A DNA stretch of 64,000 nucleotides, from contig JBAZRF010000003.1 in the NCBI GenBank assembly GCA_041663165.1, positions 11,364 through 75,363 on the forward strand, given 5' to 3'. Below, piece after piece: positions 3,684-27,089 of the stretch. How positions within the stretch are numbered: the stretch's first letter is position 1; every line of letters begins with the position of its first letter. A program made the translations under genes and the position numbers. The DNA is from Minisyncoccota bacterium. GTDB taxonomy: Bacteria; Patescibacteriota; Minisyncoccia; Phycocordibacterales; XYD1-FULL-46-19. The notes beneath the pieces were generated by a model. That model did not search any database and was not told where the DNA came from. It saw only the letters and a program-made list of their open reading frames with translations.

Positions 3684-3720
3684 GCCGTCACTCGTCCCGA
3701 GTGACGGCATTTCGTGATTT
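3684..3720 (+). terminator. Rho-independent terminator-like hairpin (GCCGTCACTC-GTCCC-GAGTGACGGC followed by ATTTCGTGATTT) ending the GC-rich segment upstream of dnaX
   Basis: 10-bp perfect stem followed by a T-rich tract. Confidence 0.4.
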
Positions 3721-3767: not shown

Positions 3768-4805
3768 ATGTCCGAACTAGCCCTTTATCGCAAATATCGT
3801 CCCTCAAAATTTAGCGAGGTCATCGGCCAAGAGCAGGTAACCGGTGTTTTGGAATCAGCCATTAAGCAAGGCAACCTTGTCCACGCCTATCTCTTTGTCG
3901 GTTCGCGGGGCACGGGCAAAACGAGCGTAGCCCGGATTTTCGCTAAAACGATTGGCACTAGCGACAATGACCTGATTGAGATCGATGGCGCCTCCAACCG
4001 CGGTATCGATGAAATTAGAGCCTTACGCTAGGCCGTGCGCACCCTGCCGTTCGAATCCAAGTATAAGGTTTATATTATTGACGAGGTGCACATGCTCACT
4101 AAAGACGCCTTCAATGCCCTGCTCAAAACTCTTGAAGAGCCTCCGGCCCATGTCATCTTTATTTTAGCCACAACCGAACAACATAAAGTTATAGACACGA
4201 TCGTCTCACGTTGCCAAACCTTCATTTTTAAAAAACCAACCAACGAGATTCTTAAAAAAGTTGCCAAAGATATTGCTAAGAAAGAGGGCTTCACTATCGC
4301 CGATGATGTCGCCGATTTGCTCGCTTTTATGGGTGATGGCTCCTTTCGTGACACCATCGGTATTTTGCAAAAAATAATTGGTTCGTCGGCTGACAAAAAG
4401 ATCGCGCTTGAAGAGGTACAAAATATCACTGGCGCGCCACCGCTTAAGTTAGTTTATGATTTAGTCGAAGCGATTGCTGATAATAATTTAGATGGTGCAC
4501 TCACGGTCATTGACCAAACGGCTGAGGCGGGGACAGATTTTAAAATTTTCCTAAAACTCGTAATGCGCGAGATTCGCTTGGCCCTGCTCACCACCATGTC
4601 GCCCACTTTAAAAACTAAAATTTTGGCCGAAGCGGGGGATAAAGAAAAAGAATTTTTCACCACCCTCTCTACCAAACCCGGCTCGAAAAATCTTGCCACT
4701 GCCTTGCGCGAATTTCTCGATACTTATAACCTTCTCGGTGGCAGTTTCTCCCCCCAGATTCCATTAGAGCTAGCGGTGGTGAAAATTTTGGAACCAAAAG
4801 CTTAA
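3768..4805 (+). CDS. dnaX: DNA polymerase III subunit gamma/tau, interrupted by an in-frame TAG at 4029-4031
   Basis: Walker A GSRGTGKTS, then YKVYIIDEVHM and SRC motifs. Both ORF pieces (3714-4031 and 4035-4805) are in the same frame and are separated only by TAG. Confidence 0.8.
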
Positions 4806-8369: not shown

Positions 8370-8440
8370 TGCGGGATCGTCTAAAGGTAGGACATGAGCC
8401 TTTGAAGCTCAGTATCTTGGTTCGATTCCAAGTCCCGCAG
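8370..8440 (+). tRNA. tRNA-Gln (anticodon TTG)
   Basis: Cloverleaf drawn by hand. Anticodon loop CTTTGAA, T-loop TTCGATT, U1:A72 pair as in bacterial tRNA-Gln. CCA is not encoded. Confidence 0.8.
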
Positions 8441-8463
8441 CAGCGTGATAAAATAAGAGAGTT

Positions 8464-8697
8464 ATGGAACAATTAGATTTTTTTGACCAAGGATCTGAAC
8501 CAGAGACAGGGCCAGAGACGCCCGAAATTCAGGAAGATGTGTCAGTTGAATCTCTTGGGGCCGTGAGTCGATCGCCCGAAATAGTTTTTGGTCCACCGGT
8601 TAATCCAGATGATGATTGCCCTCACAATGACACCTATCGCAATTGTCCCTTTTGTCGATTTAGATTTCCATTCAAAAAGCCAAGAAAAGCCGCTTAA
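8464..8697 (+). CDS. Hypothetical acidic small protein with C-terminal Cys cluster (CPHNDTYRNCPFC)
   Basis: ORF with a zinc-ribbon-like CxnCxxC motif. Confidence 0.3.
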   Translation: MEQLDFFDQGSEPETGPETPEIQEDVSVESLGAVSRSPEIVFGPPVNPDDDCPHNDTYRNCPFCRFRFPFKKPRKAA

Positions 8698-13641: not shown

Positions 13642-13878
13642 ATGGGCGAACATAAGGTAATCGTTTATTCAACTCGGTCTTGCCCTTATTGTATTATCGC
13701 CAAAGAATATTTGGAGAGAGTTGGTGTTCCTTTTGAAAACAAAGATGTTGGCAAAGATCCGATTGCCAGCCAAGAAATGGTCGCCAAGAGCGGGCAAATG
13801 GGCGTACCGGTAATTGAAATTGACGGAGAAATTATTGTCGGTTTTGATTTTGAAACTATTGAAAAATTATTAAGCTAA
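13642..13878 (+). CDS. Glutaredoxin-like protein (NrdH/Grx family)
   Basis: CPYC active site in a 78-aa thioredoxin fold. Confidence 0.75.
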   Translation: MGEHKVIVYSTRSCPYCIIAKEYLERVGVPFENKDVGKDPIASQEMVAKSGQMGVPVIEIDGEIIVGFDFETIEKLLS

Positions 13879-13886
13879 TAAAAATT

Positions 13887-14273
13887 GTGGATAACACAGA
13901 TAACACAAAAGAGACGGGGCCGTCTAGCCAATTTGAGAAATTTCTTGGCCAGACGGTTAAGGTAAAAATTGATCGAGCTTTGGGGTCAAAGCATCCCAAA
14001 CATGATTTTGTTTACGATGCCAATTATGGTTTTGTTCCCGGTGTCATGGCGCCAGACGGCGAAGAATTAGATGCCTATGTTTTAGGTATCTCCGAGCCCG
14101 TTCAGGAATTTGAAGGTAAATGTGTGGCAATTATCCACCGCTTAAACGACGATGACGATAAATTGGTAATCGTCCCGCCCGAAGGCGAAAATATTACCGA
14201 CGAGGAAATTCGCCAAGCCACTAATTTTCAAGAGCAATTTTTTGAGTCGGTTATTATAAGGAAATATAACTAG
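13887..14273 (+). CDS. Inorganic pyrophosphatase-like protein (short form)
   Basis: DGEELDAYVLG resembles the family-I PPase DGDPLDVLV core, but at 128 aa it is shorter than canonical. Confidence 0.45.
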   Translation: MDNTDNTKETGPSSQFEKFLGQTVKVKIDRALGSKHPKHDFVYDANYGFVPGVMAPDGEELDAYVLGISEPVQEFEGKCVAIIHRLNDDDDKLVIVPPEGENITDEEIRQATNFQEQFFESVIIRKYN

Positions 14274-14309
14274 ACAAGTTTTTTAAAAGTAATAGAGTTA
14301 CAAGTGAAT

Positions 14310-14327
14310 GGTTCTTGTTGTTTCAGG
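14310..14327. repeat. Direct repeat GGTTCTTGTTGTTTCAGG; left boundary of the Cys-rich-ORF cassette
   Basis: Matches 14614-14632 (GGGTTCTGTTGTTTATGG). An ACTTCAGGA motif sits next to both copies. Confidence 0.5.
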
Positions 14328-14354
14328 TGCTTAACTTCAGGAAGGAGGCCGCTT

Positions 14355-14573
14355 ATGGCCACAGTCGAGGGTCACGTTCACGTGACCAAAGAGGAAATGG
14401 ACGCTCTTTGCCAGTGTTCATTCCAAGGTACACCGGATGAGAAGAACGCGCAGGGGACAGCCATTCTTGTTCGGATAAGAGACGAGGGCTGCGCTTCTTG
14501 CCGAACGGCCTGGCAGCGGTACATGGCCTCGCACAAGTGCTCACCCTGCCCGGCGGAGGCATCCAACGTGTGA
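14355..14573 (+). CDS. Cys-rich small protein (72 aa) in a GC-rich cassette
   Basis: Consensus SD GGAAGGAGG lies 6 nt upstream. 8 Cys (CQC...CASC...CSPC). GC-rich compared with flanks. Confidence 0.4.
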   Translation: MATVEGHVHVTKEEMDALCQCSFQGTPDEKNAQGTAILVRIRDEGCASCRTAWQRYMASHKCSPCPAEASNV

Positions 14574-14613
14574 ACCCGTTCTGCGCTCGTCCTACTTCAG
14601 GACCTGCGTGGGC

Positions 14614-14632
14614 GGGTTCTGTTGTTTATGGT
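14614..14632. repeat. Direct repeat; right boundary of the Cys-rich-ORF cassette
   Basis: See 14310-14327. Confidence 0.5.
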
Positions 14633-14644
14633 AGGATTATTAAA

Positions 14645-15901
14645 ATGAAAAAAGACGAAAACTATGAGGTAATAGTTATCGGTGGCGGGCCGTCGGGGAT
14701 GATGGCAGCGGGGATTGCCGGTGAGAAAGGCAAACGGGTCTTGTTGTTAGAGAAAAATGAAAGATTGGGCGATAAACTCAAGGCGACTGGCGGCGGGCGG
14801 TGCAATATCACTAATGCCGAGGAGGACAAGGAGGCCTTGCTTCGTCATTATGGCGAGGCTAAAGATTTTCTCCAATCGCCCTTTGCGCAATTTGGCGTGG
14901 CCGATACTTTTAAATTTTTCGAATCGCACGGCTTACCCCTCGTGGTTGAGGCACGCAAACGAGCCTTCCCGGCGACCCAAAAAGCTGAAGATGTTTTTCG
15001 CGTGCTGGAGAAATTCATGCGGGCCGGTAAAGTTACCGTTAAAACCGGCGCTAAGGTAGTGAAATTGATTAAAGATAATGATCAAAAAGTCACGGGAGTG
15101 ATACTTTCAAATCACGACAAGCACTTTGCCTCAAATTTCATTTTCGCCACTGGCGGTCTCTCGCACCCCGAACTGGGCGCCACAGGCGATGGCTTTGCTT
15201 GGCTTCGCTCGCTTGGTCATAAGGTTAAAGAATCTTCGCCCGATATTGTACCGCTCGCGGTTAAAGAGAAGTGGGCTAAGGATCTCTCTGGTGTGTCGCT
15301 CTCGTTTATGAAGATTACTTTTTTCTTAGATGGAGTTAAAAGGTTTTCAAAAAAAGGCAAAATTCTTTTTACTCATTTTGGTTTGTCGAGTCCCCTAATC
15401 CTAAATAGCGCGCGCGAGGTTAAACCGTTAATTCAAACTGGTGGTATCGTTACGGCCACCATCGACACTTGCCCCGATACCGATATCGGTTCGCTTGAAA
15501 AGCAGGTGATCAAAATTTTAGATCAAAATAAAAATAAGGTTTTAAAAAACACCTTACCGGCGCTCGCCCCTGACGGGCTCGCGCCAGCGTTAGCCCTCTT
15601 GCTTGCCAAAAAGCTCAACCTCGATAAAAAAGTCCACAGTATTACCAAAGATGAGCGTCGTGTTATTGTCGATTTGCTCAAAGCTTTGCCTCTCACCATT
15701 ACCGGCCTCATGGGCTTCGATCGTGCCGTGGTCTCCGATGGGGGAGTTGAACTGGCCGAAATTGATCTCCGCACCATGCGCTCGCGTCTCCACCCCAACA
15801 TCTACGTTACTGGCGATCTCCTCAATATCTCCCGCCCCTCCGGCGGCTTCTCTCTCCAACTCTGCTGGACCACAGGGTATGTAGCCGGGAGGAGTGTGTA
15901 A
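14645..15901 (+). CDS. FAD-dependent oxidoreductase, HI0933/BaiN-like flavoprotein family
   Basis: N-terminal Rossmann VIVIGGGPSGMMAAG with HI0933-like layout. The ORF-track start at 14498 is an upstream over-extension into the cassette. Confidence 0.8.
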   Translation: MKKDENYEVIVIGGGPSGMMAAGIAGEKGKRVLLLEKNERLGDKLKATGGGRCNITNAEEDKEALLRHYGEAKDFLQSPFAQFGVADTFKFFESHGLPLVVEARKRAFPATQKAEDVFRVLEKFMRAGKVTVKTGAKVVKLIKDNDQKVTGVILSNHDKHFASNFIFATGGLSHPELGATGDGFAWLRSLGHKVKESSPDIVPLAVKEKWAKDLSGVSLSFMKITFFLDGVKRFSKKGKILFTHFGLSSPLILNSAREVKPLIQTGGIVTATIDTCPDTDIGSLEKQVIKILDQNKNKVLKNTLPALAPDGLAPALALLLAKKLNLDKKVHSITKDERRVIVDLLKALPLTITGLMGFDRAVVSDGGVELAEIDLRTMRSRLHPNIYVTGDLLNISRPSGGFSLQLCWTTGYVAGRSV

Positions 15902-15902
15902 G
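15854..15902 (+). repeat. Repeat copy A: the 3-prime end of the flavoprotein gene (CTCCAACTCTGCTGGACCACAGGGTATGTAGCCGGGAGGAGTGTGTAAG)
   Basis: Repeated at 16682-16762, with a 31-nt internal insertion, and partly at 18393-18425. Confidence 0.85.
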
Positions 15903-15904
15903 TA

Positions 15905-15933
15905 TTGACATAATACGATACAGGCCTTATAAT
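15905..15933 (+). promoter_or_regulatory. Consensus sigma70-type promoter (TTGACA-17nt-TATAAT) driving the cassette membrane-protein gene
   Basis: Exact TTGACA at 15905-15910, a 17-nt spacer, and exact TATAAT at 15928-15933. Confidence 0.5.
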
Positions 15934-16013
15934 AATAAATAGATGTTTGCCGTAAGCCGAAGAATGTTTTCTTCGGGGCGGATTGTTTTTAGACAGGAAG
16001 GAGGACGGACTGG

Positions 16014-16610
16014 ATGTTGATTGGAAAAATGCTAGGTCTGGTGGCGGCGCTGTTGCAGACCGTCGCCTATCTTGATTACAACCAGAAGGTGCTTCGAGGG
16101 GAAACAAAGCCGAATGGTGCAACCTGGCTCATCTGGGCCTCGCTTGCGGGGCTAAACGCTTCGAGCTACCTGGTCATGACCAGCAGGGAACTTGCAACGG
16201 CTCTCTTGCCGCTTATCAACACTCTTCTTTGTATCGGGACATTTTTTCTTGCTCTCCGATTGAGAAAGTTTGATTGGCCGGATCTCTGGGATTGGCTGGC
16301 TCTGGCGACGGGACTAATTTCTGCCGTGACTTGGTGGCAGTACCAGTCAGCAGTGTCGGCCAACATGATCTTGCAGTTCGCGATATTTTTGGGTTTTATC
16401 CCAACTTATCGTCTGGTCTGGCGAGATCCTCAAGCAGAACGCCCGCGCCCTTGGTGGATTTGGGTGGGAGCCTATTGCGTCCTGACCATAACCGTAATCG
16501 TGTGCTGGAAAAACCAATGGCAAGACCTCGGCTATCCGGTAAACTGCTTGGTGCTCCACAGCCTAGTGCCCGGTATCGCGTTCGCGAGCTTCAAGCTAAG
16601 GGTTAAGTAA
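16014..16610 (+). CDS. Hypothetical polytopic membrane protein (198 aa) in a GC-rich cassette
   Basis: GGAAGGAGG SD lies 9 nt upstream. About 5 TM helices. GC-rich. Confidence 0.5.
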   Translation: MLIGKMLGLVAALLQTVAYLDYNQKVLRGETKPNGATWLIWASLAGLNASSYLVMTSRELATALLPLINTLLCIGTFFLALRLRKFDWPDLWDWLALATGLISAVTWWQYQSAVSANMILQFAIFLGFIPTYRLVWRDPQAERPRPWWIWVGAYCVLTITVIVCWKNQWQDLGYPVNCLVLHSLVPGIAFASFKLRVK

Positions 16611-16630
16611 TTGAATCATCGCCCACAACG

Positions 16631-16656
16631 AAAACCGTTGGAGGGCGGTTTTCTAT
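16631..16656 (+). terminator. Rho-independent terminator-like hairpin (AAAACCG-TTGGAGGG-CGGTTTT)
   Basis: Stem plus T-tract directly after the 16014-16610 gene. Confidence 0.4.
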
Positions 16657-16681
16657 TGTTTCAAATACGTTCGAATCTTTC

Positions 16682-16762
16682 CTCCAACTCTGCTGGACCA
16701 CGGGGTATGTGCCTTGCCGGCCGTAATCTCGATGAAGGCTGAGCCGGGAGGAGTGTGTAAGG
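16682..16762 (+). repeat. Repeat copy B: a degenerate duplicate of the flavoprotein 3-prime end
   Basis: CTCCAACTCTGCTGGACCACGGGGTATGT, a 31-nt insertion, then GCCGGGAGGAGTGTGTAAGG. Confidence 0.85.
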
Positions 16763-16805
16763 TCCAATCTTCTGTTTTGGCGCATTTGTGGTATAATGCA
16801 ATGGT

Positions 16806-18425
16806 ATGCCAGATCGCAGTTTAGACGAAACAACCCTGCCAAGTTCCTATGATTTAAGCCGGATTGATATGACCGGCACGGAGTATGAGGAATTCGAAGG
16901 TCATCAGCTTGGAGAAGTGGTCAATTATAACAATTTAAGAAAGGAGGTTATTGCCCAGTTCGATTTCAAAGAATTTCTCAACTCATACAATAAATCGATT
17001 GAATTTTTTACTGAGAAAGATTTTAAAAATTGCGAATCTGTCGCCGAGAAAATCTTAAGAATAATTACCTCGCCTAAATATCGAAATGGATCTCTGGACA
17101 CCATCAATTTAGAAAAGTTTAAAACTTTCTTTTTAGAAAAAATAAATTTCTGGGTAGAGAAGAATGAACAGATACAGTTTATGTTGCCCGCCTTCCCTTT
17201 TAAGGTTGCCAACCCGCTAAAATCTTCACGTCGAGACGCGGATCTTGCCGAAGTGGGAGCTTTTTGTAAATTTAACGAAATCAACCTACAAATAAAAGAG
17301 ATTTACTCTCCGGGAATACGTTTTATTATTTTTCATGACGGCCATTTATATTATCGGCACTTTCTCCATACCAAAGAAGATGCCGATCGCTACTTCTCTT
17401 CGTTAAATAAATTTGTTGACGCCCTTGGCCTAAAAGAGGTGGTTGAATTGCGAGACGCTTACAAAGAGTTGGAACAAATGGATAATTTTGAAGAAATCTC
17501 TCAAACCGCGAGGCAAGAAATAACTAAGCTTTGGGAGAACTCAGCTTCAAACGAAAAAATATCGCAAATCTTAGAGTCAGCTAAGCAAAATATAAATTTG
17601 TCAGATGTGCCCCTTAATCTATTACGCAAGATCGCTGAGTTTGAAGAATGGGACCTTTCCAACACCGAGAAGGAAATAAAACGAAAAATACAAGAAAAGG
17701 CCAAAAACTGTGCTTTTGAATACATGGTTGTTCAACATGCATTAGAGAAGGCCAACTTTTTTGATTCCCGTGTTCCCAATGGGATTAGGCTCACGGTCCA
17801 TCCAAAAGAGGGGCAAATAGGTATCTACCTAGTTCGGAAAAAAACCTATCTGTTGCCTTGGATGGGGGTGGGGGTTTTGAAAAACAATGGTGAAGTCTCT
17901 GTTCATTATGAAAGTGATTTGATCATGAGTGGTAAGTATCATCCCGTTTTTATTGAAGGGGAGCAATATCCTTTTTATTATAAAGAGGCCGAGATAATTT
18001 ATGAGGGGCTTGAGCAATTTAAGGGGCTGTTTGATTCTGTTGTTCGCGATCTTAAAAAAGATGATTATTATCGAGTTTTTGCTTTTGGCCCCGAATATCA
18101 CAATGTCGAGGTTAGAGAGATACTGTCCAATGTTCATAAGGCGCTAGAAGATCGCCAGATTAGTGACCAGGCTATTTGCAAAAAAGAAAATCTGGATTCA
18201 TTGTTAGAAACGTATAAAGATAATTCAAATATTGAAATAAGGCCAACCGAAGATGAAGTCCCGGTCGGAGTAATTATTTTAAGAGATCGGGTAATTAATC
18301 TTTTATGGGGTACCGAACCGGCCGCCTTTGAAATTACCGATCCTGAAATCGTGGCGAGATATAACGATTATTTTAAAGAGGTTTGGGATAAGACCACGAG
18401 GTATGCCGCCGGGAGGAGTGTGTGA
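16806..18425 (+). CDS. Hypothetical 539-aa protein; N-terminal half possibly Dit1/PvcA-like (isonitrile-synthase family)
   Basis: Segment LPAFPFKVANPLKS...DADLAE...IYSPGIRFIIFHDGH recalls the Dit1/PvcA pattern from memory. The C-terminus ends in the shared repeat (AAGRSV). Confidence 0.45.
   Translation: MPDRSLDETTLPSSYDLSRIDMTGTEYEEFEGHQLGEVVNYNNLRKEVIAQFDFKEFLNSYNKSIEFFTEKDFKNCESVAEKILRIITSPKYRNGSLDTINLEKFKTFFLEKINFWVEKNEQIQFMLPAFPFKVANPLKSSRRDADLAEVGAFCKFNEINLQIKEIYSPGIRFIIFHDGHLYYRHFLHTKEDADRYFSSLNKFVDALGLKEVVELRDAYKELEQMDNFEEISQTARQEITKLWENSASNEKISQILESAKQNINLSDVPLNLLRKIAEFEEWDLSNTEKEIKRKIQEKAKNCAFEYMVVQHALEKANFFDSRVPNGIRLTVHPKEGQIGIYLVRKKTYLLPWMGVGVLKNNGEVSVHYESDLIMSGKYHPVFIEGEQYPFYYKEAEIIYEGLEQFKGLFDSVVRDLKKDDYYRVFAFGPEYHNVEVREILSNVHKALEDRQISDQAICKKENLDSLLETYKDNSNIEIRPTEDEVPVGVIILRDRVINLLWGTEPAAFEITDPEIVARYNDYFKEVWDKTTRYAAGRSV
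18393..18425 (+). repeat. Repeat copy C (ACCACGAGGTATGCCGCCGGGAGGAGTGTGTGA) forming the 3-prime end of the 539-aa ORF
   Basis: 16/16-nt identity with copies A and B over GCCGGGAGGAGTGTGT. Confidence 0.8.
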
Positions 18426-18477
18426 TATAGGAGAAGTTATTTAAATATGCTGTGTAAAGTGCTACCATATTGGCAAT

Positions 18478-18978
18478 ATGTTTGAAAGCATATTTTGGAC
18501 CATAATCAGTGGGGTAGCTGTTTTCGTTGTCAGCCAGCTTGTTTTGGAACTCTGCATAAAACCATATAGAGAGTATCGGGATATAAAATATCGTATATCA
18601 AACAAACTAAAGTATTACTCGAACCTAATTACGAATCCTCTCAATTTGCTGGAACCCGTCGAGAATTTATTTACTACTGTTACAAAAACTCGTCAAGATG
18701 ATTTACAAGAGATAAATCGCAAAGAAGTTTTAGATTATTACTTAAAAACTTCTAGTGAAATGCGAAAACTTTCTTGCGACCTGGAAACTGGCTATTTTAA
18801 TAATTTAGATTTAATCAGGAAAATTTTTATAAAAGAGGATCTCCAGGATATAGATAAAGCCTCATCTCTCTTAATCAGAATATCAAACTGTCTTTTTGAG
18901 CCACGGATGGCTTTACAAAACGGCAAAGACATTGACGAAATCAAAAAACATCTTAATTTAAAATCAATTAATAATTAA
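18478..18978 (+). CDS. Hypothetical protein with N-terminal TM helix (166 aa)
   Basis: ORF with a hydrophobic N-terminus. Confidence 0.4.
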   Translation: MFESIFWTIISGVAVFVVSQLVLELCIKPYREYRDIKYRISNKLKYYSNLITNPLNLLEPVENLFTTVTKTRQDDLQEINRKEVLDYYLKTSSEMRKLSCDLETGYFNNLDLIRKIFIKEDLQDIDKASSLLIRISNCLFEPRMALQNGKDIDEIKKHLNLKSINN

Positions 18979-18987
18979 TAAAAAACC

Positions 18988-19311
18988 ATGGATCATAACA
19001 ACACCACTACGGCGTTTGAGTTGCCGGGGAAGAAGATTGTAAAAAATTTAGGGGTCGTGAAGGGGATCATTGTTCGCTCGCGCTCAATTGTGGGCACGAT
19101 TGGCGGGTCGCTCCAAACCATTTTGGGCGGGAATATCTCGCTCTTTACCGAACTCTGCGAAAAAACGCGCGAGGAGGCCTACGAGCTAATGATTAAACAT
19201 GCCGAAGAGAAGGGGGCCAACGCCATCATCGGCGTGCGTTACGACACCACCGAGCTGATGCAAAGCGTGACCGAAGTGCTTTGCTACGGTACGGCCGTTG
19301 TCGTCGAATAG
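18988..19311 (+). CDS. YbjQ/UPF0145 family protein
   Basis: 107 aa; [11 protein letters not shown] motif typical of UPF0145. Confidence 0.7.
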
Positions 19312-19323
19312 CCTTTCACCATA

Positions 19324-19360
19324 AAAATAACATCCTTACAAACTTGAGAATGTAAGGATG
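19324..19360. repeat. Hairpin repeat copy 1 (AAAATAA-CATCCTTACA-AACTTGAGAA-TGTAAGGATG)
   Basis: 37/37 identical to 23040-23076. Contains a 10-bp perfect palindrome. Confidence 0.85.
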
Positions 19361-19385
19361 AGAATTGATCCGAATAAACCCGCTT

Positions 19386-19751
19386 TTATTTAGTAAGTCT
19401 TTTCCGCCAATTGATGAGAAACAAAATGCCGATCAGAAAGGCTGGGCCGGCGATTATTACCGACCACGAGATCATGTACCATTCAAATCTGGGCTTCATG
19501 GCTAAGAGGAGAATATAAAGCAAGCCAGCGAGAATAAAAGCGATTCCGCCCACGATCTCATAGCGCCAAGAAATCCATAGGATGATCGCCAAAACAAAGA
19601 CCGGAATATTGTGCATGAATAGTCCAACGACGGTTCCCCAAAAACCGTAATTGCCATCAAAGATATCTAAAGAAAACATTGCTAGAAAAATAATAAAGAC
19701 AACTGAAGCAATTCTTGGCATCCAATAGATAAATTTGTTGATTTTGGTCAT
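19386..19751 (-). CDS. Hypothetical small membrane protein (121 aa, 3-4 TM)
   Basis: Hydrophobic ORF co-directional with the 942-aa gene. Confidence 0.45.
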   Translation of the reverse strand: MTKINKFIYWMPRIASVVFIIFLAMFSLDIFDGNYGFWGTVVGLFMHNIPVFVLAIILWISWRYEIVGGIAFILAGLLYILLLAMKPRFEWYMISWSVIIAGPAFLIGILFLINWRKRLTK

Positions 19752-19756
19752 CGTTT

Positions 19757-20116
19757 TTATCCCCTAACTTTTTTGTAAATGATTATTCCCAAACTGACGA
19801 AGAGAAAGATGGCACTTAAAAACCAGGTTAGAATATATTTATTTATACAAATCTCAAAAAAACCGTGGCAGTAATCGGGAGTGAAAACCTCGGCCAGAAC
19901 TGATAAGGGGATAAAGATGATGGCAAATTTACTCCATGTTTTGAATATTTGGTTAGAAAAAAACAAAAGGATGACTAGAGTTAAAATTATTATTGGTGTT
20001 GCTATAGCTAAGGGTAAACCAAGAGAAAAAGCACTAGATTTTAACCAAAAATCCGCCCAAACGTAAAGAGCTAGACAAATAGCGATAAACACCCAAATAG
20101 TTTTTTTGTGAGACAT
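19757..20116 (-). CDS. Hypothetical small membrane protein (119 aa)
   Basis: Hydrophobic ORF. Confidence 0.45.
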   Translation of the reverse strand: MSHKKTIWVFIAICLALYVWADFWLKSSAFSLGLPLAIATPIIILTLVILLFFSNQIFKTWSKFAIIFIPLSVLAEVFTPDYCHGFFEICINKYILTWFLSAIFLFVSLGIIIYKKVRG

Positions 20117-20117
20117 T

Positions 20118-22946
20118 TTATTTCAAATTATCTAATAATTGATTAAGCATTTTAACAAGAATATCTTTGTCTGATTGGGGAATTATTTGCCGGTTGCGCC
20201 AGTGCGGACGATCGGCCAGCCAAACGGTCAATTTTATTCTGCGTTCAACGTTCTTTATTTTTCCTCGCTCGATTAATTTTATCATATTATCGATCCTCGC
20301 TTCTAATAACTTTTCCACTAAAGGCTTAAGGTCAAAACTGGCGACAACCTTTTTCATCATTTGTAAGTAAAGAATTAGATCAAAACCGGTATTTGGTTTA
20401 ACGGCAAAATCATTTTTGCCATCACCATCGGCGTCGATTAATAGAGTTGTCGAAGTTCCAGCCGAGACGTTTAAACTGGCTATCGTCATTGGCGTAACGG
20501 GGATATCGGTAAATGATACAGTTGTAGTACTAACACCATCGGTTGTTTCTTCTTGCTCGTAACTAAAAATACCAAAGCTTAACCCCGCTAATTTTATCGC
20601 ATAATTAGCTGGGGCGAGCCCGTTTCCGAAGGGTAAAACAATGTATTTACCCTCGCCAAAATCAAGATATTTGCTATTAGGGATATCCTCTTCGATCAAT
20701 TGCAAATCTGAATTCGGGTTCGGATTAGGAATAAGCCCAGTGTGATTGCCTAAATTATCATAAGCATTAAGCGAGACGGGCGAATGGACGCTAATGAGTA
20801 AGTTTTTTTGCCCTGCCGTTGGAGTCGGTTTGGCTAGAGAAAAATAATTTGGTAAATCAATAGTGTTTTTGATGAGATTTGTGATTTCTTGTTGCACAGA
20901 GCTCATTTCGAAAATATCTTTATGCACCCAACTTTTATTATTAACCTCATTGTATTTCTGTATATCAAGGTAAAAATCTCTATGACTCCCCACTGCTCCG
21001 GTGGCGCTTGGCGAAACCACCGTCCCGTCGCCGTCGGTGGTGAGGAGGGGGTGGATGTCGAGCTTGTTGTCTTTAGCTAAATACTCGGTGGTTTTGAGGG
21101 TGGGGATGCCCCAACCGGCGATTTGAATTACCTCGGTCGTTGTCGGGAATTGCCAATTGTCGAGGTTATCATGAGTAATCTGACTTTTGGTGAACATTTG
21201 GGAATTTAAAATATTGGGGGTCGCCAGGTTGGTTACCGCCGGTTTGGCTCGGCCGTCAAGTTGACCAAGCGCAAATTGCTGGAGTTTGTCGGCCGATGAA
21301 ATTTCGGTGCCGTAGCTAGCCAAACCGGGCATAATTTTTACCGCTGACTGGTCGAATTTAATTACTGGTTCTTGCACGGTGGCAAAATATTTGGTTGAAG
21401 GGAGGAGATTGTAAGCTGACGGCATATTCTCAACCGCTTGGCGCGCGACCGATTGATTAAGGAGAAAGCCGTAACCTAAGGCTTGATCAGCGCCATGGAG
21501 CATGGTGGGGATAGCTTCAGGCGTGCCGAGTTGTGGTACCGCTACCAAAATTACTTTATCAATTTTGTCGACTAAATCGCTTTGGTTAGAGGTTTTCATT
21601 TCTTGTAATTTTTGCATTAAAGCCTTTGCCACCAAACCCCCGTTTGAGTGGGCAACAATTGTCACCTTGCCATTTTTGGAGCGGTTGGCTAATTTTTGAA
21701 TCTCGGCGATCATGTAGGGAAGTTGTCCGGCCGACAAGTCGGAAGTATAAGAAATACCCTTTGTTGTCGTTGCCCCGCGCGCAACCACTTTATCTAAATC
21801 AAAACGCCAATCATAAGGCAGGGGTTCAAAATCGGCAATATCGCCAGCGGCCACCATTTTATTCATTGATTTGATGAAACCATCATAAATCGGCATGAAG
21901 CCGAGAAAAGCGTTATCAATTACTTCGCGGGTGTAGATTGAAGGATCAACACTCTCGCCAGCGGTCGTCATAAATAATTTACGGGCATCATCGTTGCGGT
22001 TAGGCACCCACAATTCGTTCTCACAATTAAACAACGTGCAACCCGGTTCTTGGCGATACAAGAAGCTGGCTTCGACACCGGGGATAAAAACAACACTTGA
22101 GAAACCGAACGGCGAGGTGGTAAAAGAATTCTCATCACTTACGGTTGGCGGGATAACTGCTGGCGTTTGGCCAATCCAGGGGTCAAAAAGGACATTAGCG
22201 CCAACGATCTTATCACCTAAACCGTTTGGGTTAAGATCGACATGGTAGGGTCCGCTATTATCGCCCCACCAATTATGGCGCGCGTCCATTGCTCGACCAT
22301 AATAGTCTCGCAGGCCAGCCTCGGTATTATGATGAATTTGACTTTGCGTGATATTGGCCGTGCCGTCTATGAAACCAAAACCAACATTATTATTGGTCAA
22401 AATACTGGCGCTGATGGTGGTGGAGCCACTTTCTTGATAAATACCTAGCGGATTGTTGGTTAACTGCGAATCGGTGATCAGTGATTCGCCGCCAGCGGCG
22501 TGGATAGCCGCGCCACCAGAATAAAAACCAGCATAACGAGCGATCACGTGAGCGAAATTAAGATGACCGGTGGCGAGGACATATAATTGATCCCAATCGC
22601 GCATCGCCGGTATGGTGGTGGTGCCATCGCCGTTTGAGTCGCCACTAATCGAATCATCTTTGTAAGAAGTAAAATAAATTTCGTCACCGGTGTTGCCTTG
22701 GGCGCTAAGCTCCCCGTTGATGTAAAAAGCGGATTTATTTTTGAATTTGACAATAGTACCCGGTTCGAGGGCGAGGGTTACGCCGTTATTAATATAAACG
22801 TCATCGGTTATGATGTAGGGGCTAGCAGCTTTGGTCCAAGTGGTATTAGTGCTTAGGCTGGCACCCGAAATTATCGTCTCAGCGAAAAGTGACAGAGGCG
22901 AGCTTAATAAAAGTAACGTTATCAAAAAAATAAATCTTTGAAACAT
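20118..22946 (-). CDS. Secreted 942-aa protein: N-terminal parallel beta-helix repeats, then an alpha/beta-hydrolase (lipase/esterase-like) domain
   Basis: Signal peptide; NxxGxxF beta-helix-like repeats; nucleophile-elbow-like VAHSNGG; long C-terminal region of unknown function. Confidence 0.55.
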   Translation of the reverse strand: MFQRFIFLITLLLLSSPLSLFAETIISGASLSTNTTWTKAASPYIITDDVYINNGVTLALEPGTIVKFKNKSAFYINGELSAQGNTGDEIYFTSYKDDSISGDSNGDGTTTIPAMRDWDQLYVLATGHLNFAHVIARYAGFYSGGAAIHAAGGESLITDSQLTNNPLGIYQESGSTTISASILTNNNVGFGFIDGTANITQSQIHHNTEAGLRDYYGRAMDARHNWWGDNSGPYHVDLNPNGLGDKIVGANVLFDPWIGQTPAVIPPTVSDENSFTTSPFGFSSVVFIPGVEASFLYRQEPGCTLFNCENELWVPNRNDDARKLFMTTAGESVDPSIYTREVIDNAFLGFMPIYDGFIKSMNKMVAAGDIADFEPLPYDWRFDLDKVVARGATTTKGISYTSDLSAGQLPYMIAEIQKLANRSKNGKVTIVAHSNGGLVAKALMQKLQEMKTSNQSDLVDKIDKVILVAVPQLGTPEAIPTMLHGADQALGYGFLLNQSVARQAVENMPSAYNLLPSTKYFATVQEPVIKFDQSAVKIMPGLASYGTEISSADKLQQFALGQLDGRAKPAVTNLATPNILNSQMFTKSQITHDNLDNWQFPTTTEVIQIAGWGIPTLKTTEYLAKDNKLDIHPLLTTDGDGTVVSPSATGAVGSHRDFYLDIQKYNEVNNKSWVHKDIFEMSSVQQEITNLIKNTIDLPNYFSLAKPTPTAGQKNLLISVHSPVSLNAYDNLGNHTGLIPNPNPNSDLQLIEEDIPNSKYLDFGEGKYIVLPFGNGLAPANYAIKLAGLSFGIFSYEQEETTDGVSTTTVSFTDIPVTPMTIASLNVSAGTSTTLLIDADGDGKNDFAVKPNTGFDLILYLQMMKKVVASFDLKPLVEKLLEARIDNMIKLIERGKIKNVERRIKLTVWLADRPHWRNRQIIPQSDKDILVKMLNQLLDNLK

Positions 22947-23039
22947 TTTTTACTTTTTTATTTTACACCCAACTTGATTTTTATTAAAACTTTTGCGGAC
23001 AACCTAAGTGCCTTGCAGCAATCACGGGGGTGTCTTGCC

Positions 23040-23081
23040 AAAATAACATCCTTACAAACTTGAGAATGTAAGGATGTTATT
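23040..23081. repeat. Hairpin repeat copy 2 (15-bp stem), lying in the divergent promoter region
   Basis: AATAACATCCTTACA-AACTTGAGAA-TGTAAGGATGTTATT. Confidence 0.85.
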
Positions 23082-23094
23082 GTAAAATATAGAA

Positions 23095-23382
23095 GTGGCA
23101 GGCAAATTAAAAACAACCAAACAAATGGAGCGCCATCTCAAAGGGATGGCCAATCATTATCGAATTGGGATTTTGTTGCTGGTAGCTGAACAGCCCAAAA
23201 TCACGCTTGAGGAAATTGCCGACACACTAAAGGGAAATCCTAAAACAATTGGCGAACATACTCGGCGGCTTAATACCGCCGGCTTGATTAACAAAAAATA
23301 TCACGGAAAGTTCGTGGAACACGAGTTGTCGGCCTACGGCAAAATCTTCGTCAAATTCTTGCAATCTTTCCAACGGCTATGA
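23095..23382 (+). CDS. ArsR/SmtB-like winged-HTH transcriptional regulator
   Basis: 95 aa with an HTH core (ITLEEIADTL...HTRRLNTAGLI). Confidence 0.5.
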   Translation: MAGKLKTTKQMERHLKGMANHYRIGILLLVAEQPKITLEEIADTLKGNPKTIGEHTRRLNTAGLINKKYHGKFVEHELSAYGKIFVKFLQSFQRL

Positions 23383-23387
23383 TTGTC

Positions 23388-23425
23388 CATAATATCATTC
23401 TTACAAACTGGAGTTTGTTGGGATG
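23388..23425. repeat. Hairpin repeat copy 3 (degenerate)
   Basis: CATCATTCTTACAAAC-TGGA-GTTTGTTGGGATG. Confidence 0.6.
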
Positions 23426-23449
23426 AAACAGGTTTGATATTATAAAAAC

Positions 23450-23977
23450 ATGATTGAGATTTCTCAAGCTAAACCAGAAGATGCGGCTGGAGCCCAACAG
23501 GTTTTTTATAAAACCTGGTTGGATACTTACCCTAACGAAGAATGTGGTATTACCGCTGCTGATATCGAAGATCGATTTAAAGATCGGATAACTGATGAGG
23601 GTATTGCTAAGATGGCTGACAAAATTGCTAATCCTGAGCCTAACTCCCTATTTTTATTGGCCAAAGATGGAAACAAAATTGTCGGGGTTTGCCGGGCTCT
23701 GAAAAATGAAGAGAAAAATCAATTAACCGCTATCTACGTTTTGCCCGAATACCAGGGCAGGGGTGTTGGACAAATGTTTTGGCAAAAGGTTAAAAAGTTT
23801 TTTGATCCTAATAAAAAGATAACCGTTGAGGTGGCAACCTACAATCAAAAAGGGATAAGTTTTTATCAACAACTTGGTTTTGTTGATACTGGCCGACGTT
23901 TTTCTCCTGAAAATACTCGGATGAAAAGCGGTTCGCTTATCCCCGAAATGGAAATGGTGACGGAGAATAATTGTTGA
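23450..23977 (+). CDS. GNAT-family N-acetyltransferase
   Basis: QGRGVGQ motif and GNAT length. Confidence 0.7.
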   Translation: MIEISQAKPEDAAGAQQVFYKTWLDTYPNEECGITAADIEDRFKDRITDEGIAKMADKIANPEPNSLFLLAKDGNKIVGVCRALKNEEKNQLTAIYVLPEYQGRGVGQMFWQKVKKFFDPNKKITVEVATYNQKGISFYQQLGFVDTGRRFSPENTRMKSGSLIPEMEMVTENNC

Positions 23978-24240
23978 TGAAGACCTTTACGGAAAAAGTT
24001 TTGGCGGTGGTGGGGAGGATCCCGAAAGGGAAGGTTTTAACATATGGGGAGGTGGCGAAAAAGGCGGGCAATGCCAAGGCGAGCCGAGCTGTCGGGAATA
24101 TTTTGAATAAAAATCACGACCCAGCTATTCCCTGTCATCGAGTCATTAGATCAGACGGTAAATTGGGCGGTTATAACCGCGGCGCCAAAGCCAAAGCTGA
24201 TTTGCTCAAAAAAGAAGGGTTCAGAAAGATGGGGGGCTAA
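23971..24240 (+). CDS. Methylated-DNA-protein-cysteine methyltransferase catalytic domain only (Ogt/MGMT C-terminal domain)
   Basis: PCHRVI active-site motif in an 89-aa protein. Confidence 0.7.
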   Translation: MLMKTFTEKVLAVVGRIPKGKVLTYGEVAKKAGNAKASRAVGNILNKNHDPAIPCHRVIRSDGKLGGYNRGAKAKADLLKKEGFRKMGG

Positions 24241-24264
24241 GTGTGCTATACTTAGTAAAATAAC

Positions 24265-25173
24265 ATGTTTTTATATCGCAAAAATAGCAAATGGGAGGAT
24301 AATACCGGTCCGGCGGTTAAGGCGCTTAGGTTAGTCTTGCTGGTCTTGATTGTTGTTGGTTTAGTTCTGATCTTCACGAAAAATCTTTGGGTGCCCAAAT
24401 TGGTTGATTATATTTTGCAAACCAAGGGCCAGCCGGAGGGGGTGATCAATGCCGTAACATTCAATTGTCAGGATGAAAAAGCGATCGACGCCATCTTTTT
24501 TAAAGATCGAGCTGAGCTGACTTTAAATGATGGACGTCACCTGCTTTTGAATCAGGCTGTCTCGGCCTCGGGCGCGCGTTATGCTAACCGCGATGAGAGT
24601 TTTGTATTCTGGAATAAGGGCGATACTGCTTTTATAACTGAAAAGGATCCTTTGGCTTCGCTCGGGACAAGCAAAACGACTTTTGCTAATTGTGTGCTTG
24701 CCGAGAATAATCAAACAGGTACGGTCGAACAATATTTTAGTCAAAATCTTAAAACGTTTGTCGACGATGAAACCGGTATTACCTTTCAATATCCTGATAA
24801 AATTTTAACCAAATATATCGAAACCGTTGACTGGCCACCTAAGGTCCAAGAATTGCGGGAACCTTTTTCTTGTGTCGAAACTGGAGCTGAAACTGGCCGG
24901 GCCGGTAAAACGGCGAGGCAAATAATTAATGGGCAAGACTATTGTGTCACCAAGGAAAGCGAGGGCGCGGCTGGCAGTATTTATACCAATTATGTCTACG
25001 CTTTTCCTTACAATAATACAACGATCATTTTTACTTTTAGCCTCCGGTTCGTGCAGTGCGACAATTATGATGATCCGCAAAAAAGCGCCTGCAAACAAGA
25101 GCGATCATTGTTTAGCCCCGATAATGCCACTGATCAAATGGCGGAGAGCTTGAGTTTTCAGATCCAACAATAA
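24265..25173 (+). CDS. Membrane-anchored MliC-like (C-type lysozyme inhibitor) domain protein
   Basis: N-terminal TM helix; FNCQDE...SASGARYAN...FWNKGDTAF matches the MliC pattern. Confidence 0.5.
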   Translation: MFLYRKNSKWEDNTGPAVKALRLVLLVLIVVGLVLIFTKNLWVPKLVDYILQTKGQPEGVINAVTFNCQDEKAIDAIFFKDRAELTLNDGRHLLLNQAVSASGARYANRDESFVFWNKGDTAFITEKDPLASLGTSKTTFANCVLAENNQTGTVEQYFSQNLKTFVDDETGITFQYPDKILTKYIETVDWPPKVQELREPFSCVETGAETGRAGKTARQIINGQDYCVTKESEGAAGSIYTNYVYAFPYNNTTIIFTFSLRFVQCDNYDDPQKSACKQERSLFSPDNATDQMAESLSFQIQQ

Positions 25174-25181
25174 GTTTACCC

Positions 25182-26126
25182 ATGAAAATCTTTCGGCTTA
25201 GATTTTTTGTTGACTTGCTCATCATTTTAGCGCTGTTAGGCGCGGGCTATTATTACCGCGCTGATCTTGGCCGGATTGGGCGAGAACTGGTGAATCGAAC
25301 TGTACCTTGTTCGCAATCCATTACTTATTCTCTTGGCAACATTGACCCGCGTTTTGGTTTAACCAAGGCCGAAGTTTTGGCTGATATTAAACAAGCCGAG
25401 AAAATTTGGGAAGCGCCAGTTGATAAACAGCTCTTCGAATCCTCGCCCACCGGGGCCTTAAAAATAAATTTTATTTATGACGATCGGCAAAAAGCGACTA
25501 ATGCTTTGAAAAAAATGGGCCTAACAATCGACAATGACCGGGCGACCTACGATGCCCTCAAGGTCAAATATGACTCGCTGGTTACTTTGTATAACCAAGA
25601 TAAAGCGCAAATCGAAGCCTTGGTGGCGAATTATCAGGCCGATCAAAATGCCTATAATCAAGAGGTAAGTTCTTGGAATAGCCGCGGTGGTGCGCCAAAA
25701 GCCGAATTTAATGCCTTGGAACAAAAAAGACTAGAGTTAAATAATCAAATCGCGGTAATTAATCAGGACCAAAAAAACTTCAATAGCTTGGTCGATAGTA
25801 TTAATTCAACCGAGCTGGTACTTAACAAATTGGTTAGCATTCTTAATCTCCATGTCAGCGCCTATAATACGACCGGGTCATCAGTGGGTGAGCAGTTTAA
25901 TGAGGGAGAATATAAGAGCGACGTGAGCGGAATAGCCATCGACATTTATCAATTTAACGATAATAATCAGCTAACCAGAGTGTTGGCTCACGAACTCGGG
26001 CACGCTTTAGGACTGGACCATATCAATAATCCAAAGGCCATCATGTATTATCTTAACGAAGGTTTGAATATAAAATTAACTGCCGACGACCTTGCTGCCC
26101 TGAAAAAAGAGTGTGGAATCAAGTAA
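25182..26126 (+). CDS. Membrane-anchored zinc metalloprotease, metzincin/matrixin-like
   Basis: HELGHALGLDH (HExxHxxGxxH) plus a downstream Met-turn (IMYY). N-terminal TM helix and a coiled-coil middle. Confidence 0.65.
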   Translation: MKIFRLRFFVDLLIILALLGAGYYYRADLGRIGRELVNRTVPCSQSITYSLGNIDPRFGLTKAEVLADIKQAEKIWEAPVDKQLFESSPTGALKINFIYDDRQKATNALKKMGLTIDNDRATYDALKVKYDSLVTLYNQDKAQIEALVANYQADQNAYNQEVSSWNSRGGAPKAEFNALEQKRLELNNQIAVINQDQKNFNSLVDSINSTELVLNKLVSILNLHVSAYNTTGSSVGEQFNEGEYKSDVSGIAIDIYQFNDNNQLTRVLAHELGHALGLDHINNPKAIMYYLNEGLNIKLTADDLAALKKECGIK

Positions 26127-26175
26127 ATTTAGCGAGCTTGTATATTGGGGTAATTGCTTATAAGATAGGTATATT

Positions 26176-26460
26176 ATGGTAGACCCAAAACAAGTAGATT
26201 TTAATCAATTACCTAAGAAGTTTTGCGACGGGGCAATTGGCGCTTATGGCAAAGAACTTTTCTCGTTTGCCTTAACTTCGGGCAATAGCTTGGATTCTTT
26301 TATTACTACCCCGCAAATTATGAAGAGTATTGCCATTTGGCTAGACGGTCAGGTGCAAAATTACGAAAAGCAATTTGGCGAGATTGATATGACTCCGCCC
26401 AAAATCGAGAGTCCAATCCAGCGCGCTGATTTAGAAAAACCAAGCGACGATAGTAAATGA
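26176..26460 (+). CDS. Hypothetical protein (94 aa)
   Basis: ORF only. Could be the N-terminal part of the next gene. Confidence 0.3.
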   Translation: MVDPKQVDFNQLPKKFCDGAIGAYGKELFSFALTSGNSLDSFITTPQIMKSIAIWLDGQVQNYEKQFGEIDMTPPKIESPIQRADLEKPSDDSK

Positions 26461-26464
26461 AATC

Positions 26465-26845
26465 TTGAGGAGATTTTTTATCAAGCGATCGATTTTGCGT
26501 GGTTTTAGCCGACGCAATTATTTAAAGCATAAAGAGCTGGCAAGGGCTTTGGTTTTGGCGCGAGTTGAATATTTTAATCAAATTTATAAATTGCCCGTTG
26601 GTCGGATCAGTATTCGTAACCAACGGTCGCGCTGGGGGAGTTGCTCTAAAAAGGGGAATTTGAATTTTAATTATAAAGTCGCCCTTATCCCAGCTCATCT
26701 CGCTGATTACATTATCGTTCATGAGTTGTGCCACTTAAAAGAGTTCAATCACTCCAAAAGGTTTTGGGCGCTGGTTGGACAAAGCACCCCTAATTATTTG
26801 GAACTTAGGCGAGAATTGCGTGGCTTTACAATCCCAATCCGCTAA
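26465..26845 (+). CDS. YgjP/DUF45 (SprT-like) predicted zinc metallohydrolase
   Basis: WGSCS...IVHELCHL motifs. Confidence 0.6.
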   Translation: MRRFFIKRSILRGFSRRNYLKHKELARALVLARVEYFNQIYKLPVGRISIRNQRSRWGSCSKKGNLNFNYKVALIPAHLADYIIVHELCHLKEFNHSKRFWALVGQSTPNYLELRRELRGFTIPIR

Positions 26846-27089
26846 GTTGGGAGACATAATCGTTCATAAACATCGGGAGAACAAACATTAGCCCGATCAC
26901 CGGGATGACCAACACGACAACGGTAATAATCAGCGTCCAGAGAAAGTATTTTCGCGTTTTTTCGACCGAAAGGTAAATGTTATCAATTTTTTCTTCGAGC
27001 TTGATTAAGCGTTGTTCAAAATTTGGTTCCATAACCATAATTATAGCAAGGACGGAAAATCTTGTAAAAGGAAAAGATTTGTGGTACAA
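26826..27089 (-). CDS. Hypothetical small membrane protein
   Basis: ORF with one TM helix. Confidence 0.3.
   Translation of the reverse strand: MYHKSFPFTRFSVLAIIMVMEPNFEQRLIKLEEKIDNIYLSVEKTRKYFLWTLIITVVVLVIPVIGLMFVLPMFMNDYVSQLSGLGL

Follow-up and report, generated by a model that had tools for sequence, protein, structure and literature searches.

The window analyzed in the current work is a 64 kb stretch of a metagenome-assembled genome assigned to the Paceibacteria (Candidate Phyla Radiation (CPR)/Patescibacteria), and its subject is a flavoprotein gene whose 3' end is present in three copies that delimit two gene-carrying units, here named cassette 1 and cassette 2 (Table 1). The gene encodes a flavin adenine dinucleotide-dependent flavoprotein of the HI0933-like/aminoacetone-oxidase family, with matches to PF03486 (1.4e-72) and to TIGR00275 (9e-112), the latter covering profile positions 1-401 of 401 and extending up to residue 416 of 418. 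Its C-terminus (...CWTTGYVAGRSV) is the native form of the clade. Loci from related genomes and contigs are designated by the prefix L.

A preliminary description of this DNA had reported the three copies, an internal insertion of 31 nt in the second of them and a core of 16 nt shared by all three, and each of these features was recovered. The last approximately 49 nt of the gene occur as three direct repeats on the + strand, named W1, W2 and W3 from 5' to 3'. W2 is a hybrid, composed of a left arm of 29 nt (28 of which are identical to the window's own gene, with 1 mismatch), the 31 additional nt, and a right arm of 20 nt which holds the core plus TAAG and is identical to the corresponding part of W1. 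W3 shares 88% identity with W1 over 32 nt (4 mismatches) and ends in TGA, W1 and W2 both ending in TAAG. The core GCCGGGAGGAGTGTGT occurs exactly three times in the 64 kb, even when up to 3 mismatches are allowed, with 0.26 occurrences being expected and none of 100 shuffled sequences reaching three; the three-copy repeat is not due to chance.

Table 1. Features of the flavoprotein locus and its surroundings (window coordinates unless a relative is named).
Feature	Position	Strand	Remarks
Target gene, HI0933-like/aminoacetone-oxidase-family flavoprotein	14645..15901	+	PF03486, TIGR00275; intact
W1, attL-like functional gene end	15854..15902	+	left part native; core, TAA stop and next G adjoin cassette 1
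Core GCCGGGAGGAGTGTGT within W1	15884-15899	+	16 nt, exact in all three copies
Cassette 1, self-contained expression unit	15900..16661	+	limits set by homology with L081 1297-2056
Cassette 1 promoter TTGACA-17-TATAAT	15905-15933	+	12/12 consensus score in promoter scan
Cassette 1 leader hairpin with T-run	15957-15990	+
Cassette 1 Shine-Dalgarno sequence, within CAGGAAGGAGG	15994-16004	+
198-aa open reading frame (ORF) of cassette 1	16014-16610	+
Cassette 1 terminator hairpin with tail	16620-16661	+	terminator-like hairpin from scan at 16630-16653
Spacer between cassette 1 terminator and W2	16662..16681	+	20 nt, TCAAATACGTTCGAATCTTT
W2, hybrid junction	16682..16761	+	left arm 16682-16710, extra 31 nt 16711-16741, right arm 16742-16761
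Cassette 2	16762..18391	+	extended -10 box and body of 539-aa ORF
Extended -10 box TGGTATAAT of cassette 2	16789-16797	+
539-aa ORF, PvcA/Dit1-type isonitrile-synthase-like	starts 16806	+	PF05141, 6.6e-32
W3, attR-like, displaced original gene end	18392..18425	+	read in frame as end of 539-aa ORF
GC-rich unit upstream of flavoprotein gene	14280..14640	+	weak promoter; not bounded by gene-end copies
72-aa Cys-rich ORF of upstream unit	14355-14573	+
Terminator of upstream unit	14598-14630	+
Non-coding RNA-like unit, L166	4054-4259, 4637-4843
Non-coding RNA-like unit, L164	11545-11739
Non-coding RNA-like unit, L008	15982-16165	-
Non-coding RNA-like unit, L002	11398-11544	-
Non-coding RNA-like unit, L001	3684-3729		remnant

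Cassette 1 has a guanine-plus-cytosine (GC) content of 0.50-0.54 (about 0.52), and its earlier portrayal as a GC-rich unit with a perfect promoter and its own terminator proved accurate. It recurs as one unit in L081, an ENA contig showing no flavoprotein: homology begins at the left end of the cassette (AAGTATTGACAT, 12 of 12 nt identical), spans promoter, leader and ORF (60-79% nucleotide identity per 100 nt in the coding part; 70% aa identity for the ORF) and ends at the terminator, where about 31 of 31 nt are identical. Cassette 1 is modular and of foreign origin. Its 198-aa product, for which 16 homologues were retrieved and which has no family in Pfam, PHROG or PADLOC, is a membrane protein with seven helices in its AlphaFold2 model (predicted local distance difference test score 82), and the modelled fold may distantly resemble the KDEL receptor, cystinosin and SWEET (PQ-loop-type) folds, to which it gave weak structural matches. 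The cassette proteins correspond to NCBI records MFA6253894 (locus tag WC640_01370) and MFA6253895, which belong to one contig of 84,562 nt; PHROG and PADLOC searches with the cassette ORFs returned nothing, and a 166-aa ORF downstream of the array matched one PHROG family, the function of which is not known. The spacer between cassette 1 and W2 was likened to the inter-cassette spacer of L081, a weak resemblance which 5 to 29 of 300 shuffles equalled and which was dropped as evidence.

Cassette 2 has a GC content of 0.33-0.41 and possesses neither a stop codon nor a terminator of its own. Its 539-aa ORF, which also matches PDB entries 9dhm and 3e59 (about 1e-16), borrows its last 10 codons and its TGA stop codon from W3, which is read in frame, and the previously noted ending ...RYAAGRSV* is confirmed as ...TTRYAAGRSV*. 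The 11 homologues that were aligned (531-601 aa) all end in ...ELWxK(xx), about 10 residues earlier than the 539-aa protein, and 9 of them carry an N-terminal helix-turn-helix (HTH) domain which is absent from the latter. The possibility, raised earlier, that GRSV is a widespread protein signal was not borne out, as this tail is found in 0 of the 11 homologues and the codons specifying the conserved flavoprotein C-terminus vary among flavoprotein homologues. The repetition exists at the level of nucleotides, and the TTRYAAGRSV tail is a foreign, chimeric by-product of the junction and not a shared peptide signal. In W3, two substitutions (G to R and V to A) strike otherwise invariant residues, which points to a loss of constraint.

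Relatives were obtained from two scans, for which the matches listed comprise 80 from a genome collection and 80 from a metagenome collection, mostly 57-75% identical, while the closest relatives (84-92% aa identity) came from a protein search and a cluster look-up outside the two scans. Extra gene-end copies were found in none of the 160 scanned relatives listed except L001, and the array phenomenon appears, on these comparisons, to be restricted to a narrow clade. On both sides of the flavoprotein gene, the window is syntenic with L002 (85% aa identity) and L001 (87%), relative to which it has 11 kb of non-homologous DNA downstream of the gene (15902-27061).

Empty sites, which the preliminary description had proposed to look for among relatives, were found in L164, where the gene ends in ...GTGTGATAAAATATAAT with a TGA stop codon and the next gene follows directly, and in L002, from which a second gene-end copy is absent. 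The occupied counterpart is L170, in which a 1.1-kb insert lies between the gene end and a second copy of 45 nt. Here a promoter (ATTGAC...) directly adjoins the gene end ...GTGTAA and is followed by a GC-rich 125-aa membrane ORF with a hairpin, a DUF5680 gene and then the second copy, which is 43/45 identical, in frame (QLCWTLGYVAGRSV) and terminated by TGA. The sequence flanking this distal copy, TAAAATGTAAT, is the same as that flanking the empty L164 site, and the blastn match of the L170 distal copy to L164 extends 13 nt past the repeat, matches to other loci stopping at or before the repeat end. Three copies are present in L001, bracketing a promoter-plus-terminator remnant and a 73-aa ORF, with the distal copy reading CWTTWYVAGSV* in frame; L166 contains truncated gene-end remnants, and the L001 and L166 arrays both keep AATTCTGCT. 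A promoter abuts the flavoprotein stop codon in L165, L167 and L170.

Across these loci, proximal copies carry a TAA stop codon joined to the insert, and distal copies, like the empty site, carry TGA; the distal copies remain in frame but are mutated at invariant residues (TTRYAAGRSV in the window, TTWYVAGSV in L001). Considering that the distal copy keeps both the stop codon and the flank of the empty site, it represents the displaced original gene end, and in the proximal copy the stop codon, at least, derives from the insert. The earlier proposal of an insertion into the gene's 3' end, with the target end being rebuilt, is thereby supported by the empty L164 versus the occupied L170 site, by the TGA/TAA pattern and by the decay of the distal copies. 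DNA on both sides of the flavoprotein gene is variable in relatives. In L001 (4210-6351), a Bsp6I-type restriction endonuclease gene lies beside a gene for a 525-aa fusion of LexA DNA-binding domain, S24 peptidase and C5 cytosine methylase, with DUF3644 and AbiU2-like genes after the fusion, and this defence islet directly follows the array.

Since the window stems from a metagenome-assembled genome, concatenation by the assembler of strain variants with a common gene end has to be weighed as a source of the repeats, and the locus is indeed hard to assemble, because the contigs of two close relatives, L167 (2289 nt) and L169 (1719 nt; 91-92% aa identity), end 44 and 116 nt past the flavoprotein stop codon. 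Assemblies seem to break at this flavoprotein-end hot spot; in L167, a consensus promoter directly follows the stop codon. Such an artefact is nevertheless almost negligible as an explanation: the copies differ from one another (the 31-nt insert of W2, the 4 mismatches of W3, the unlike stop codons), W3 is read in frame within an ORF, and equivalent arrays with other cargo (L001, L170, L166) were recovered by other studies, the array-type loci coming from independent assemblies (NCBI, JGI, ENA, Logan). Local duplication without mobile cassettes, by tandem duplication or unequal crossing-over with subsequent replacement of the DNA between the copies, or the decay of flavoprotein paralogues into remnants, would fit direct repeats as well as a 207-nt local duplication seen at the locus in L166, but is scarcely credible given that every interval between copies, in every genome, holds DNA unrelated to that of the others and that the left arm of W2 matches the gene of another genome. 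Furthermore, no paralogue body is left upstream of W2 or W3, because W2 is preceded by the cassette 1 terminator (as in L081) and W3 by the end of the isonitrile-synthase family homology.

Several sequences are shared between cassettes of different genomes. Window positions 16681-16710 (30 nt, containing the W2 left arm) are 100% identical to the L170 flavoprotein end, and this cassette arm came from elsewhere, because it matches the L170 gene end exactly and the window's own gene end does not. The W2 segment ATGAAGGCTGAGCCGGGAGGAGTGTGT aligns with copy 2 of L001 (0 of 500 shuffles as good), the right part of W2 and this copy having ATGAARGCTGRGC-GGGAGGAGTGTGT in common. In addition, a 3' hairpin, CCGCCCGCAGAAGCC...GGCTCTGTCGGGCGG, consisting of a 7-bp outer stem, a bulged T, an inner stem with a bulged A and a variable loop, is found in five loci behind three unrelated ORFs of 73 aa (L001 and L166), 164 aa and 125 aa (L165 and L170), and a diverged variant lies behind a fourth ORF in L115. 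In L081, the cassette 1 homologue is adjoined by a second GC-rich unit whose 3' hairpin is homologous to those of the 73-aa and 125-aa ORFs. The recurrence in L081, the common hairpins and the matches of W2 to L170 and L001 indicate that cassettes travel between genomes together with an arm imitating the gene end.

Phage morons are independent promoter-ORF-terminator units of deviant GC content which reside between resident genes of phage genomes, and the present units are like them in composition, build and position between resident genes, but morons are not bounded by gene-end copies. In searches of viral contigs, neither the core nor either of the two hairpins was matched, and no relative of the 198-aa family could be confirmed, which leaves a phage origin of the cassettes unsupported.

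Downstream of the flavoprotein gene, relatives have a conserved unit of approximately 190 nt with a promoter, a terminator and no ORF, which resembles a gene for a non-coding RNA (Table 1); in L166, two copies of it with 96.6% identity surround the 73-aa cassette. The unit belongs to no Rfam family (L166 gave sub-threshold chance matches only) and is absent from the window, in which Rfam identified no family between 13 and 20 kb. That the 31-nt insert of W2 is a remnant of the promoter of this unit (TTGCCGG) is a guess.

The three copies are best read as scars left at the junctions when DNA integrated twice in succession into the final approximately 45 nt of the flavoprotein gene, a reading to which we assign a probability of roughly 0.6. 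In the course of events that we infer from the junctions, the incoming DNA would be a small unit of 0.8-1.7 kb, presumably circular, which carries its cargo and an imitation of the gene end including the stop codon. Reciprocal and conservative recombination inside the common core of 16-20 nt (GCCGGGAGGAGTGTGT) would join the native gene body to the end copy supplied by the insert, so that the gene remains complete and takes its TAA stop codon from the insert, and would shift the previous gene end to the far side of the insert. The crossover would fall within the last 16-27 nt (in L170, within 27 identical nt), and for cassette 1 it would be placed in the 20-nt right arm, because W1 is devoid of the 31-nt insert of W2. 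Cassette 2 would have been the first to integrate, leaving the original end as W3, and cassette 1 would have followed at the rebuilt gene end, thereby producing W1 and the hybrid W2.

As to the agent, we lean, tentatively and at slightly less than even odds, towards a site-specific recombinase whose gene would lie at another place in the genome or on a helper element and which would act in trans on the cassettes, because one stretch of 45 nt served at least 3-4 different cargos. Such an arrangement would parallel that of cis-mobilisable elements and integron cassettes. The independent events number approximately 3-4, and not one per junction, because several junctions share descent.

A number of observations weigh against such integrations. 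In accordance with the preliminary description, which saw no recombinase gene in the window, no integrase, resolvase or transposase domain was identified by Pfam in the scanned ORFs of the window or L001; the ORFs scanned were those of the cassettes, of window 11.7-28.3 kb and of L001, together with ten more from the window, and the remaining window ORFs, judged from their translations, look like housekeeping genes. Dyad symmetry is missing from the repeat, with no inverted arms of at least 6 nt and a 2-12-nt spacer in the 63 nt surrounding W1, and the window holds no match to the dif sites of E. coli or B. subtilis (up to 8 mismatches), which may differ from that of the host lineage. Moreover, the copies have no common left limit (CTCCAAC, CCAAC, CTGCTG, GACCAC), the cores of L001 have diverged from one another, and junctions are related by descent (W2 and L001 copy 2; the L001 and L166 arrays). 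Finally, cassette 2, being without stop codon or terminator, may be a truncated fragment and not a well-formed element.

The same topology could be generated without a dedicated recombinase, if DNA taken up from outside were incorporated by homologous or short-homology recombination of the host. This might proceed either through a single-crossover (Campbell-type) insertion of a circle bearing a 30-45-nt gene-end copy, or through a double crossover in which the flavoprotein body serves as left arm and the short downstream copy as portable right arm. The lack of a recombinase gene in or near any array (ORFs scanned), the missing dyad symmetry and the varying left limits all suit this explanation, and frequent recombination at the flavoprotein locus fits because identity between clade members is mosaic, amounting to 86/92/81/81/91% in five segments between the window and L169 and to 92/81/82/88/90% between L170 and L165. 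In L166, the same cassette, termed B, lies between two 207-nt repeats of other sequence (96.6% identical), although these repeats may have arisen independently, by duplication on the spot, inside an array that is orthologous to the L001 array. There is also a precedent in an integrase-less E. coli island with direct repeats that excises independently of RecA and of each of the 16 site-specific recombinases (PMC5426353); unlike the present arrays, the H47 island of E. coli is larger and enterobacterial, with no gene-end rebuilding and no serial array (PMC5426353). We nevertheless consider host recombination, although a serious rival, rather unlikely, as the identity of just 16-30 nt makes a poor RecA substrate, the origin of the first duplication is left unexplained, and the arrival of at least 3-4 different cargos at one 45-nt stretch, with the crossover in the last 16-27 nt, looks site-specific.

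In its anatomy, the locus matches the accretion arrays known from conserved gene ends, of which it would be, in our best reading, a small and integrase-less form. An insert flanked by repeats of the target's 3' end is present in the window, L170 and L001, the target is intact (full-length TIGR00275 match) with the TAA versus TGA pattern pointing to a replacement end supplied by the element, and empty sites exist in L164, whose flank is that of the L170 distal copy, and in L002. An element-encoded integrase or recombinase, which is needed for an autonomous island and not for a cis-mobilisable element (CIME), was not found in the scanned ORFs. One example of accretion is provided by Streptococcus thermophilus, in which ICESt1/CIME occupies the 3' end of fda. 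In Dehalococcoides, islands are bounded by ssrA or by a 20-bp repeat of its 3' end, and 15 islands without an integration module have been proposed to be cis-mobilisable (PMC3146451). The present arrays are like the Dehalococcoides and CIME islands in their serial integration at one gene end, in the integrity of that gene and in the presence of units without integration genes. They are unlike them in the units, which measure 0.8-1.7 kb, hold one or two genes and in no instance seen carry a recombinase, in the target, which is a protein-coding flavoprotein gene of a CPR host, and in that no integrase-bearing sister element was found at any locus.

In the tycheposon islands of Prochlorococcus, older elements are displaced inward by new arrivals, and partial tRNAs stay behind as scars (bioRxiv 10.1101/2020.12.28.424599). 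The pushing on of older elements, the partial target copies left as remnants and a streamlined host with few classical mobile elements are common to both systems, whereas tycheposons insert at tRNA or tmRNA genes, possess tyrosine recombinases and replication modules, and range in length from kilobases to tens of kilobases. Here, the target is protein-coding, and neither recombinase nor replication genes were found in the scanned ORFs.

Another set of small accessory modules without own recombinase, the elements that exploit Xer recombination (IMEX) and the pdif modules of Acinetobacter plasmids, is bounded by short repeated sites, the pdif sites being 28-nt dif-like sequences with two 11-nt arms, and is presumably mobilised by enzymes of the host (PMC6449649). 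The present modules resemble them in their small size, in the lack of an own recombinase and in their short repeated boundaries, but their repeat lies inside coding sequence and shows neither dyad symmetry nor dif similarity, and a 28-nt dif-like site with inverted 11-nt arms and a 6-nt spacer was not found. Transposons and insertion sequences fit no better, as the duplications are 33-49 nt long (versus 2-14 bp) and are accompanied by neither terminal inverted repeats nor a transposase.

Integron arrays, including clusters of attC sites lacking integron-integrases (CALIN), consist of single-gene units without own recombinase which are separated by a recurring site, the newest unit being located beside the docking site. 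The preliminary description had likened the locus to such an array, and as a loose analogy this stands: the units are recombinase-less, carry single genes, lie between recurring sites, and the newest is next to the docking site. Unlike in integrons, the cassettes of which mostly lack promoters, what recurs here is the duplicated end of a host gene, and the units have their own terminators and promoters, as exemplified by the 12/12 promoter of cassette 1 and those of L165, L167 and L170. An intI gene with attI and Pc was not found beside the docking site, the upstream genes encoding a methyltransferase, a glutaredoxin and a pyrophosphatase-like protein with no recombinase domain. The copies do not fold like attC sites (z-scores from +0.06 to +1.4 for the window copies, and -1.2 at best for an L001 copy), and inspection of the junction repeats revealed no RYYYAAC...GTTRRRY.

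These findings also bear on a new type of integron-like system, in which the 3' hairpin would be the counterpart of attC, the flavoprotein end that of attI, and the recombinase would be encoded elsewhere. The location of one imperfect hairpin behind unrelated ORFs in five loci, the near-perfect identity of the cassette 1 terminator between the window and L081 as opposed to 70% for the ORFs, and the position of newer cassettes adjoining the docking gene and of older ones further off are in its favour. It is very improbable all the same, given the promoters and the missing intI and consensus just described, given that the hairpins carry T-rich tails and look like ordinary intrinsic terminators, and given that the junction repeats lie outside the hairpins. 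A broader proposal is that Paceibacteria harbour an undescribed, dedicated cassette system, a functional analogue of integrons, whose promoter-bearing and recombinase-less micro-cassettes, each with a conserved 3' hairpin and an imitation of approximately 45 nt of the flavoprotein gene end, would be captured at that gene end as docking site, stacked and exchanged by a recombinase acting in trans; we regard it as unlikely.

Other units and repeats occur around the locus. A 1-kb insertion (13642-14640) between the methyltransferase and flavoprotein genes, absent from L001 and L002, holds the glutaredoxin gene, the pyrophosphatase-like ORF and a GC-rich unit (Table 1) with the same CAGGAAGGAGG Shine-Dalgarno sequence and the same terminator style as cassette 1. 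A flanking repeat of this upstream 14.3-kb unit is marginal, 12 of 500 shuffles being as good. Further GC-rich promoter-ORF-terminator units are situated at 30850-31450 (- strand; 149-aa ORF; absent from L002) and at 3150-3710 (96- and 75-aa ORFs with a GC content of 0.61-0.64). A 77-aa acidic, Cys-containing ORF (8464-8697) directly follows tRNA-Gln (8370-8441), and no significant partial tRNA repeat was detected downstream of it (55 of 500 shuffles as good). No significant flanking repeats were detected at the units at 3.1, 8.4 and 30.8 kb of the window, nor at those in L082 and L083.

A 37-nt sequence with a palindrome of 12-bp arms, AAAATAACATCCTTACAAACTTGAGAATGTAAGGATG, is present at 19324-19360, 23040-23076 and 23389-23425 (two perfect copies and one diverged), as well as at L001 8414, L105 109/446 and L150 12251. 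In the window, the copies enclose a 3.7-kb block with three genes on the minus strand (for DUF7670, a membrane protein and a 942-aa LCAT-like lipase) plus an ArsR-type HTH gene, and in L001 the sequence is fused to a truncated ybjQ start. It may represent a second type of repeat-bounded module, or an operator or terminator. A dnaX-like gene (3768-4805) contains an in-frame TAG at 4029-4031 (...GIDEIRALR*AVRTLPFESKYKVYIIDEVHML...), which could be a sequencing error, the mark of a pseudogene or a site of read-through.

To our knowledge, gene acquisition in CPR/Patescibacteria is poorly understood, their genomes being tiny and few classical mobile elements having been reported in them, and a limited literature search found no account of such arrays in Patescibacteria. 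Accretion arrays at gene ends are known as such; particular to the present case are micro-units without integrase, a protein-coding target, own promoters and common hairpin modules, and a CPR host. For annotators, the mechanism is of practical relevance as it makes chimeric ORF tails, such as that of the 539-aa protein, and breaks assemblies at the locus. Should a recombinase acting in trans be at work, the present data narrow its site to 16-45 nt, and the enzyme could be sought and tested. The locus represents a concrete and recurrent route by which single-gene units, some of them common to several genomes, are stacked at a conserved gene end without disruption of the gene.

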